Position numbers: made by a program | Assembly (NCBI RefSeq): GCF_057098645.1 | Contig: NZ_CM169472.1 | Strand: one strand, 5' to 3' | DNA: 64,000 bases | Shown here: in pieces, positions 11,001-14,000 of the stretch | Position numbering within the stretch: the stretch's first letter is position 1 | Layout: the number at the start of each line of letters is the position of its first letter

Positions 11001-14000
11001 ACAGCTCGGTGCGCTCACGCGTTGAAAAAAGCGAAGCCAACGCGCAAGCCACCAATGCGGTTATTCCACCGGCCAGAATGCCTGATAACTGATTTAGCGA
11101 TCAGTTTCGGTGATCCACAGCTGGCCGCCTTCCATCCACGCCAGCCACTGACCATCCGGCGAGAAGACCACGGCGTCCGCAGAAGGTGGATTGGCGTGGT
11201 TTTCGGTTAAATACTCAACCTCGCCGCTTTGCGCATGGGCACAAGCAATTCGATTACCCAGCACAAAGCCCAACCATTCTCCTGACGGATGCCAGTTAAA
11301 TGCAGACTGAATATCCGTTTTGTTATGGGTTAACTGGCGCGGCTCGCCGCCCTGTGGCGAGATAAGCCACAGTTGCACAATGCCGTTATCATCTCGCATT
11401 AAAAACGCGATTTGCGTACCCTGCGGATTACAGCGCACCCAGTGGCGCGGGACGTTGACTAACCCCGGATAAGCCCGATGGTGGGTAAAGGTTAAACGTC
11501 GCTGCACGACGCCACGCGGTGGCGCGGGCAGGGTTGTTTCCGTTCCACTTAACGGCGCATCACCTGCTGCTTTCCAGCCAGCTTCATCTTGCGGTAACTC
11601 AACGATAAACAGCTCCGGCACTTTCTCGCCCTTTGGCGAAAGCGTATCGCCAATAAACGCCAGCGCGTGATTTCCTACCCATCCTTCTTCATAAGCACGA
11701 TTGATTTCATCGCTGCCAGGCTGCGGCGTGGGCGTTGTTTTACTCACCAGTGCGCACCAGTGGCTACCGCTGTATTCACGCGGATGCTGCTTTTGTACGT
11801 TGACCGGGCCAAACGGTGCAGCAACCCCGACGTTTCGCAAATCCAGCGCCGGGCTGCGTTCATGCATTACATGGTCGTTATAGGTAAAGCTCACCATTTC
11901 ACCGTTCGGGCTAAAGACATGCACATGGCTGCCGCCGCGCAGCGCTCCTGGGGTGTACGGTGCAGTAATATCCATTGCATCGAGATTGCTCACCTTGCCG
12001 CCTTCAGCAATGACTCCGCGCCGATGATGGAAATCGTAATACCATGTTTCATCAGGATTTTCCGGGCCGTGAATGAAGACATATTTTTCTGACTTCGGAT
12101 GAACGGTCACCACGCCGACGTGTGCGCCCTGTGACGCGCGATAGATAACCTCGACCTCTCCAGTATGGATATTCACACGCTCAATGGTCTCGCCGGTAAA
12201 CGACGCCCCAGAAGGACGCACGTCAAATACCAGCCACTGGCTGTCGGGCGTCCAGGTATTGGTATTGGTGAGCAGGTGATTACGGGGAGCAAAGGTTATC
12301 TGTTTCATGGCGTGGTCCTGATACAAAACGGTTCACGCCATCATACTTCACAAGGACTTCACTTTCAGACAATAGTCTTTTGCCATCGTGATGAATGTGA
12401 GTGAAAAGATGGAACATTTCGACGTGGCGATTATTGGCCTCGGCCCGGCAGGGTCGGCGTTGGCGCGAAAGTTAGCAGGCAAAATGCAGGTGATCGCGCT
12501 GGATAAAAAGCACCAGTGTGGTACTGAAGGTTTCAGCAAACCCTGCGGCGGTCTGCTGGCACCGGACGCGCAGCGATCTTTTATTCGCGATGGACTGACG
12601 CTTCCTGTCGATGTGATCGCCAACCCGCAGATTTTCAGCGTCAAAACCGTCGACGTCGCCGCATCGCTCACGCGTAACTACCAGCGAAGCTATATCAATA
12701 TTAATCGCCATGCTTTCGACTTGTGGATGAAATCGCTGATCCCCGCCAGCGTTGAGGTTTATCACGACAGCCTGTGTCGAAAAATCTGGCGTGAGGATGA
12801 TAAATGGCATGTCATTTTTCGTGCAGACGGTTGGGAGCAGCATATTACCGCCCGCTATCTGGTCGGTGCCGATGGCGCAAACTCGATGGTGCGGCGACAT
12901 CTCTACCCGGATCATCAAATCCGTAAATATGTCGCTATCCAGCAGTGGTTCGCAGAGAAACATCCTGTGCCGTTCTACTCCTGCATCTTTGATAATGCGA
13001 TAACTGACTGTTACTCATGGAGTATCAGCAAAGACGGTTATTTTATCTTTGGCGGTGCCTATCCCATGAAAGACGGTCAGACGCGTTTCACGATGCTGAA
13101 AGAGAAAATGAGCGCCTTTCAGTTCCAGTTTGGTAAGGCGGTGAAAAGCGAAAAATGCACGGTGCTGTTTCCCTCGCGCTGGCAGGATTTTGTCTGCGGT
13201 AAGGACAACGCCTTTCTGATTGGTGAAGCGGCGGGATTTATCAGCGCCAGCTCGCTGGAGGGGATTAGCTATGCGCTGGATAGCGCAGAGATTCTGCGTG
13301 CGGTGTTCCTGAAACAGCCGGAGAAGAGCAACGCCGCTTACTGGCGCGCCACCCGCAAACTGCGTTTAAAACTCTTCGGCAAGATAGTAAAAAGCCGATG
13401 CCTGACCGCACCGGCTTTAAGAAAGTGGATTATGCGCAGTGGTGTGGCGCATATTCCACAGTTGAAAGATTATCCAACGTGCTTCACATCGCCCACCAGC
13501 AGGATGTAAGAGAGCGCGCCAATCAACGCGACGGCGGAGATATAAACCAGTGCCGGGGCGAACCCATAGCCTTGCAACAGATATTAGTCCACAAAAAAAC
13601 ACCTCATAAGAAAAGGTCTTATATCGGGCAGAAATCTGAAAAGGGATATCAGGCGCTAATCAGGAGGGAAAGAAGAGTATGCTTTCAACGGCTTAGCTAC
13701 TCGTTTAAAGGATTAATCATGAAGTTGAATTTTAAGGGATTTTTTAAGGCTGCCGGTATGTGTTCTTTGGCAGTTTCGTTGACCGGATGTATCACCTGGG
13801 GCTTGGTTTCCAATACTGCAAGCCGTCCACATGCCGAGCAATGGCGGTCAGACACGATTAAGGGTTTATCGCTGGCAGAGGATAGTAACGGTACGAAAGG
13901 CTATGTTTTTGTTGGTGAATCGTTGGACTATCTGTTGACCACCGGCGGCGGTGAGGTGGTTAAAATGCTGAACGATCCGGCAATTCATGGTGAAAGAATC

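Follow-up and report, generated by a model that had tools for sequence, protein, structure and literature searches.

Deletion of the D-galactonate operon between cbrA and yidX in Escherichia coli O145:H28 and related serotypes, probably of single origin

In Escherichia coli K-12 the dgoRKADT operon, which serves transport and catabolism of D-galactonate and is repressed by DgoR, a regulator of the GntR/FadR family, is located between cbrA and yidX. Here we consider a stretch of 64,000 nucleotides, termed the window, from contig NZ_CM169472.1 of the RefSeq assembly GCF_057098645.1. At the same chromosomal site cbrA and yidX are almost neighbors in the window. This raises a simple question. Was the operon removed, and if so, once or several times, or is the short arrangement the original one? 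The answer proposed below is a single old loss-of-function deletion which was inherited by descent and which should have abolished galactonate catabolism; we assign to it a probability of about 0.93. The window matches the chromosome of E. coli O145:H28 strain RM9872 (NZ_CP028379.1) with 100% identity over the region examined. The RefSeq annotation of this identical record gives the local order ibpA, yidQ, yidR, cbrA, a stub, yidX, yidA, yidB and gyrB. Locus coordinates for K-12 are those of the DH5alpha record, and population counts were taken over 5,426 complete E. coli genomes.

The cbrA-yidX interval and its junction

In the window the stop codon of cbrA is at 13507-13509 and the ATG of yidX at 13719, which leaves a spacer of 209 bp. 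In K-12 the corresponding locus positions are 8574 for the end of cbrA and 13571 for the start of yidX. The K-12 spacer of 4,996 bp holds dgoT, dgoD, dgoA, dgoK and dgoR, all on the strand opposite to cbrA. The initial annotation, made from the sequence alone, had estimated a distance of about 210 bp and had put about 5 kb of dgoRKADT at this place in K-12; the measurement and the DH5alpha record confirm both. It had further proposed to align 13300..13800 to the two K-12 junctions. In this alignment the left homology stops at 13575 (K-12 locus 8676) and the right homology restarts at 13577 (K-12 locus 13430). The K-12 sequence absent from the window amounts to 4,753 bp. Lost are dgoR, dgoK, dgoA, dgoD, the first ~409 codons (~92%) of dgoT, the dgo promoter and 1.5 DgoR operators. 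A tblastn search with the K-12 proteins gave no DgoD, DgoK or DgoA match in the whole window, nor was there a match for DgoR or any other Dgo homolog anywhere in the 64 kb.

What remains of the operon is a stub on the minus strand at 13470..13583. It comprises the stop and the last ~35-37 codons of dgoT, without start codon or promoter, and encodes the final transmembrane helix and the C-terminal tail of the transporter. That this frame is the leftover 3' end of dgoT, as suspected at the outset, is evident from BLASTP, where 35 of 37 residues are identical to positions 409-445 of the 445 residues of K-12 DgoT. In a phmmer search the sole PDB matches are the solved D-galactonate transporter, 6E9N and 6E9O (residues 412-445, E=5e-15). 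RefSeq, using the Prokaryotic Genome Annotation Pipeline (PGAP), calls the stub a 114-nt minus-strand pseudogene, 'incomplete; missing N-terminus'. Nothing similar to dgoT was found upstream of it. Full-length DgoT, a protein of 445 aa with 12 transmembrane spans which resembles SLC17 within the major facilitator superfamily, is thus not encoded. Just past the dgoT stop a terminator-like hairpin is present at 13475..13491 on the minus strand, a pattern match only from a consensus scan. It falls within an extension of cbrA described below and is probably the leftover terminator of the dgo operon.

On the dgoR side the K-12 breakpoint lies between ATATTGTTGTACT and ACAATTTAG, i.e., at the center of the DgoR operator IR1. 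The 22-mer which spans this breakpoint is operator IR1 as printed in PMC11705089. Because the break is in the middle of IR1, the deleted segment includes the proximal half of this operator as well as IR2 and the dgo promoter, and the arrangement of a DgoR repressor with two operators, IR1 and IR2, overlapping the dgo promoter does not exist in the window. The remaining yidX-proximal part of the dgoR-yidX intergenic region, 13577..13718, opens with a degenerate distal half of IR1. Compared with the K-12 system the locus carries the authentic 3' end of dgoT and intergenic DNA beginning inside IR1. It is the scar of this operon and not an instance of it.

These two relics also settle in which direction the change occurred. 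One might argue that the short cbrA-yidX arrangement is ancestral and that dgo was inserted in K-12-like lineages. A bare polymorphism of presence and absence would agree with this, yet nothing specific speaks for it. An insertion cannot leave behind an in-frame 3' end of dgoT, 35-37 codons with their stop, together with half a DgoR operator. Further, dgo occupies this site in 92% of E. coli and is found there in E. whittamii as well. An insertion in K-12 is ruled out by the dgoT remnant, and ancestral absence retains a negligible probability.

How was the operon excised? The similarity in the dgoT frame goes on to 13583 (Y-L-L as opposed to Y-L-A), so that the junction can be placed only to 13576..13585, an ambiguity of ~10 nt. 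At the joint the two parental sequences have no more than 2-3 nt in common, and the alignments to both K-12 junctions show no insertion sequence (IS) element, direct repeat, attachment (att) site or other scar. From such minimal microhomology and from the lack of a scar we infer that the deletion arose by illegitimate, non-homologous joining. The junction region contains no Rfam RNA family, and a promoter scan of 13300-13800 found no sigma-70-like site. With the operon gone, cbrA and yidX follow each other in the same direction without a predicted plus-strand terminator in their spacer, and transcription from cbrA may read through into yidX.

Distribution, origin and consequences of the deletion

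The junction is not a peculiarity of one strain. A 201-bp query across it is found contiguously in 413 of the 5,426 genomes, i.e., in 7.6%, when a coverage of at least 80% is counted as carriage; the identity is at least 97.5% among the matches listed. As these 413 complete genomes with the identical junction were assembled independently, an assembly artefact is rejected, and so is chance. The carriers include all listed O145:H28, O157:H7 and O55:H7 genomes and in addition O169:H41 and O157:H16. Isolates from baboons, poultry, cattle, pigs and humans are also among them. In O157:H7 and O55:H7 the cbrA-yidX junction has the same breakpoints, an identical core at 13563-13623, the same stub annotation and the same spacing to yidX. 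The K-12-specific segment is absent from genomes of enterohemorrhagic E. coli (EHEC) 1, and there, too, the stub is a RefSeq pseudogene.

DNA of dgoD-dgoA-dgoK is absent from 404 of the 5,426 genomes. This is close to the 413 carriers of the junction and indicates that carriers are generally without a second copy. For RM9872 itself the search for Dgo homologs covered the 64-kb window, and the rest of the genome was judged from these population counts. Taken together, gene order, the match of the remnant, the missing 4,753 bp and the agreement between both counts support the proposal of the initial annotation that a deletion took out the catabolic operon and spared the 3' end of dgoT.

Did this happen once? 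Across eight diverse carriers the only variation in the junction core (13563-13623) is one single-nucleotide polymorphism (SNP) in O169:H41. The 3-kb flanks of the same eight differ by 1.5-3.3% on either side, which is as much as each of them differs from K-12. An invariant core within divergent flanks points to one deletion haplotype set in heavily recombined surroundings, i.e., to one old event inherited by descent. An obvious objection is that O145:H28, O157:H7 and others lost dgo independently at a hotspot, for example at a fragile operator palindrome. The right breakpoint is indeed at the center of the IR1 palindrome, and a structure-prone site could in principle recur. Against this, the eight carriers not only have an identical junction but also share ~25 linked substitutions and indels in a 77-bp patch around it which occur in no dgo-positive genome. 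Independent events would not have produced the same junction with the same linked changes. Recurrent deletion is accordingly rejected as highly improbable.

The sequence of events is then as follows. In an ancestor of the group which comprises O157:H7, O55:H7, O145:H28 and O169:H41 one recombination, probably illegitimate, connected the center of IR1 upstream of dgoR with a point in dgoT that lies ~35-37 codons ahead of its end. Thereby 4.75 kb were excised with the dgoR repressor, the dgoK kinase, the dgoA aldolase, the dgoD dehydratase, ~92% of the dgoT transporter, the promoter and 1.5 operators. Later homologous recombination in the flanks brought a long cbrA and a divergent yidX, both independent polymorphisms, next to the scar of the O145:H28 clone.

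As no transporter, enzyme or regulator is left and a second copy is not expected, neither uptake nor catabolism of D-galactonate should be possible for the strain, judging from gene content and from phenotypes at the level of phylogroups. For phylogroup E a mean yield on D-galactonic acid lactone of 0.40 was reported, compared with 0.82-1.01 for groups A/B1, B2 and D; no other phylogroup effect in that table is as strong (Sabarly et al., 2011, PMC3147056). The low yield agrees with a group-wide loss of dgo, and the deletion provides a gene-level explanation for the poor use of this substrate by phylogroup E. In a full-text literature search no explicit published statement was found that O157:H7 or phylogroup E lacks dgo. 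As the deletion can be seen in the public RefSeq annotation of every O157:H7 and O145:H28 genome and fits the published phenotype, it is nevertheless already known; no new element or mechanism is involved. Its junction is a clean lineage marker of single origin.

Catabolic losses are familiar from EHEC O157:H7, which does not ferment sorbitol, is β-glucuronidase-negative and has an altered use of N-acetylgalactosamine. The loss of dgo likewise concerns a carbon-source pathway in a pathogenic lineage and is likewise usable as a marker. The difference is that the classic losses are point mutations or frameshifts in O157:H7 itself, whereas dgo was lost by a clean deletion of 4.75 kb which is older and present in many more serotypes. 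Use of D-galactonate has been linked to gut colonisation. The deletion is thus of relevance for nutrient-niche models of EHEC versus commensals.

Several observations weigh against a single deletion that abolished galactonate catabolism. The difference between 413 carriers and 404 genomes lacking dgoDAK means that up to ~9 carriers could have these genes elsewhere, and plasmid-borne dgoRKAD exists in one E. coli. The mean of 0.40 for group E is not zero, so some group E strains do grow (PMC3147056). The carriers may not all belong to one clade; XH990 is positive for the chu heme island (chuA), which is consistent with phylogroup E, and strain 14EC033 is rearranged.

Two of these genomes deserve a description in their own right. 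On plasmid NZ_LT883139.1 (4974-8284 of the extracted locus) a divergent dgoR-dgoK-dgoA-dgoD cluster has ~76% nucleotide identity to the chromosomal operon. It is without dgoT and is flanked by IS26, IS1 and IS5; its position among IS elements indicates that D-galactonate genes can be mobile. Strain 14EC033 (NZ_CP024147.1, 205001-255000) has a small, rearranged genome of 4.64 Mb with many copies of IS1 and truncated sugar-utilisation genes. It appears similar to Shigella or to enteroinvasive E. coli.

cbrA and yidX alleles beside the deletion

The gene cbrA, for a colicin M resistance FAD-dependent lipid reductase, is located at 12409..13509 on the plus strand. RefSeq assigns it, and the product matches the NCBIfam equivalog NF008519, a FAD-dependent protein similar to geranylgeranyl reductases, with 686.1 bits at a cut-off of 303. 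The model covers residues 1-354 of 366 and leaves a 12-residue tail outside. In K-12 and O157:H7 cbrA has 354 codons. The initial annotation had noticed an excess of about 12 codons and had connected it with the loss of dgo. The length stands, 366 codons against 354, and is accounted for by a stop-loss, TAG to TAT, due to a G to T change at 13473. The connection does not stand, as the same allele occurs in a dgo-positive strain and five of the eight sampled carriers have the short gene.

According to the K-12 alignment, the codon table and the translation the altered stop and the 12-codon extension occupy 13471..13509 on the plus strand. The extended frame ends with a TAA and is antisense to the 3' end of dgoT, where the SNP at 13473 is synonymous in the last codon (GGC to GGA). 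At least 826 genomes have the T at 13473 (perfect match of a 37-nt probe across the stop), many of them with an intact dgoT. In the dgo-positive strain HS cbrA has 1,101 nt and overlaps the full-length dgoT by 40 nt. Of the eight sampled carriers three have TAT and five TAG, and most carriers, O157:H7 included, keep the 354-codon cbrA. Can the extension still be a consequence of the deletion, a fused or altered 3' end? Both features adjoin in the window, and this is all that would recommend it. The cause is a point change 100 bp off the junction, and the distribution of the allele is that of a common variant independent of the deletion. On these grounds the idea is refuted and its residual probability is minute.

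As an aside, in some O157:H7 records (e.g., NZ_CP028623.1, NZ_CP028668.1 and NZ_AP042591.1) the feature under the dgoT remnant is named 'FAD-binding protein' and not 'hypothetical protein'. There cbrA may have been called differently or extended.

On the other side of the junction yidX, a lipoprotein gene of 218 codons, extends over 13719..14375 on the plus strand (RefSeq and comparison with K-12). Its DNA diverges from that of K-12 by ~32% (~68% nucleotide identity); we designate it as type II allele. The protein shows an LTGC lipobox and, along 213 of 218 aa, 62% identity to K-12 YidX (E=2e-100), so that the assignment to the YidX family is clear. NCBIfam has no hidden Markov model that matches it; RefSeq names its close relatives 'YidX family protein'. 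Within E. coli yidX is dimorphic: ~1,885 genomes carry the type of the window and ~3,539 the type of K-12. Among carriers of the deletion the window type is restricted to the O145:H28 clone (~27 genomes), which indicates that it was acquired by recombination after the deletion and that the divergent yidX is independent of it. The divergent body spans 13745-14370, with recombination edges near 13724-13745 and 14375-14400.

O157:H7 and O145:H28 thus differ around an identical scar. O157:H7 has the 354-codon cbrA with its TAG stop and a K-12-like type I yidX, O145:H28 has the long cbrA and the type II yidX. Annotators should not take the long cbrA or the divergent yidX for a result of the deletion, since both are common alleles which are independent of it.

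The reading frame of yidX happens to be open for 107 codons upstream of the annotated ATG, through the junction and the dgoT remnant. The resulting open reading frame of 325 aa at 13398-14375 (plus strand) has its ATG inside cbrA; it is probably fortuitous.

The divergent patch at the junction and other variation in the window

The patch of linked changes mentioned above covers 13554..13630 (~77 bp) and diverges by ~33% both from K-12 and from all dgo-positive E. coli. It is the only unexplained feature of the locus. Among deletion carriers it is nearly invariant, and the 30-mer at 13554-13583 is found only in the 413 carriers. On both sides the divergence falls abruptly to 1-2% or less. In the neighboring 27 codons the remnant departs from K-12 at two sites only, and 13473-13553 is almost unchanged. 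The boundary of the patch varies with lineage: it is at 13554 in 62 genomes and at 13563 in ~346 genomes of the O157 type, such that the patch of O157:H7 is 9 nt shorter than that of O145:H28.

The differences on the coding side follow the codon phase. Up to 13575 six of six are synonymous and in third position (P=0.0014), up to 13583 seven of nine (P=0.008); the patch is short and these statistics rest on 6-9 sites. The remnant variants which are private to carriers behave differently, three of four being non-synonymous. This argues that after the deletion the remnant evolved without constraint.

Where does the patch come from? The simplest reading, to which we give slightly better than even odds, places the deletion in a highly divergent dgo haplotype that came either from another enteric species or from a deep, now unsampled E. 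coli allele. Later homologous recombination would have trimmed the foreign DNA to ~22-30 nt left and ~47 nt right of the junction. Synonymous changes in third positions are the signature of divergence under purifying selection. The sharp drop of divergence on both sides and the different boundaries in different lineages are in line with trimming, and yidX with its two types demonstrates that very deep haplotypes segregate at this locus. What stands against a divergent haplotype, apart from the few sites, is that no donor was found. Among 80 enterobacterial dgoT loci from GTDB species representatives the best match was 24/30, and every one of them encodes Ala at the position of the patch Leu. 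The identity to E. whittamii is no higher than 85-90%. Metagenome contigs were scanned twice for the exact pattern, with 0 hits. When chimeric queries representing the junctions before the deletion were run against the 5,426 E. coli genomes, the best dgo-positive matches were 96.5% and 92.5%. The plasmid-borne dgoRKAD cluster was rejected as a source: it has no dgoT and its upstream region does not match.

Alternatively, the deletion took place in an ordinary dgo operon, and the clustered changes stem from error-prone repair synthesis at the break or from neutral decay later on. Clusters of mutations are known beside repaired double-strand breaks, and the patch is centered on the junction. Random mutation, however, would not fall only on third positions and stay synonymous. 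Those changes which are certainly younger than the deletion are mostly non-synonymous, and the near identity of 13473-13553 with K-12 shows that general decay has been slight. Since it leaves the codon-phase pattern unexplained, error-prone repair is the weaker alternative and we regard an origin in an ordinary operon as rather improbable.

Returning to the divergent haplotype, one may speculate further, and here we are more doubtful than confident. The patch could be what is left of a dgo haplotype with a divergence of ~30% at silent sites. The deletion allele would have entered or persisted in the ancestor of phylogroup E, and repeated homologous recombination would then have replaced its flanks down to about the minimal recombination length. 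If so, its fixation across a pathogen-rich lineage would hint at selection for losing D-galactonate catabolism as opposed to neutral decay.

Elsewhere in the window two short stretches stand out by their sequence variation. In yidR (minus strand) the segment 11800-12100 shows 9-13 differences per 100 bp among O145:H28, O157:H7 and K-12, compared to 0-3 per 100 in the surrounding genes; this 300-bp stretch could be mosaic through recombination or could encode a variable domain. In the yidB region O145:H28 and O157:H7 show a cluster of 10 differences per 100 bp at 15492-15592, with 0-2 in the neighboring intervals. Finally, two RNA elements score above the Rfam gathering threshold: the small RNA ES036 (CssrF) at 15899-15941 on the plus strand, between yidB and gyrB, and a ROSE_2 thermoregulator at 10448-10520 on the minus strand, upstream of ibpA.

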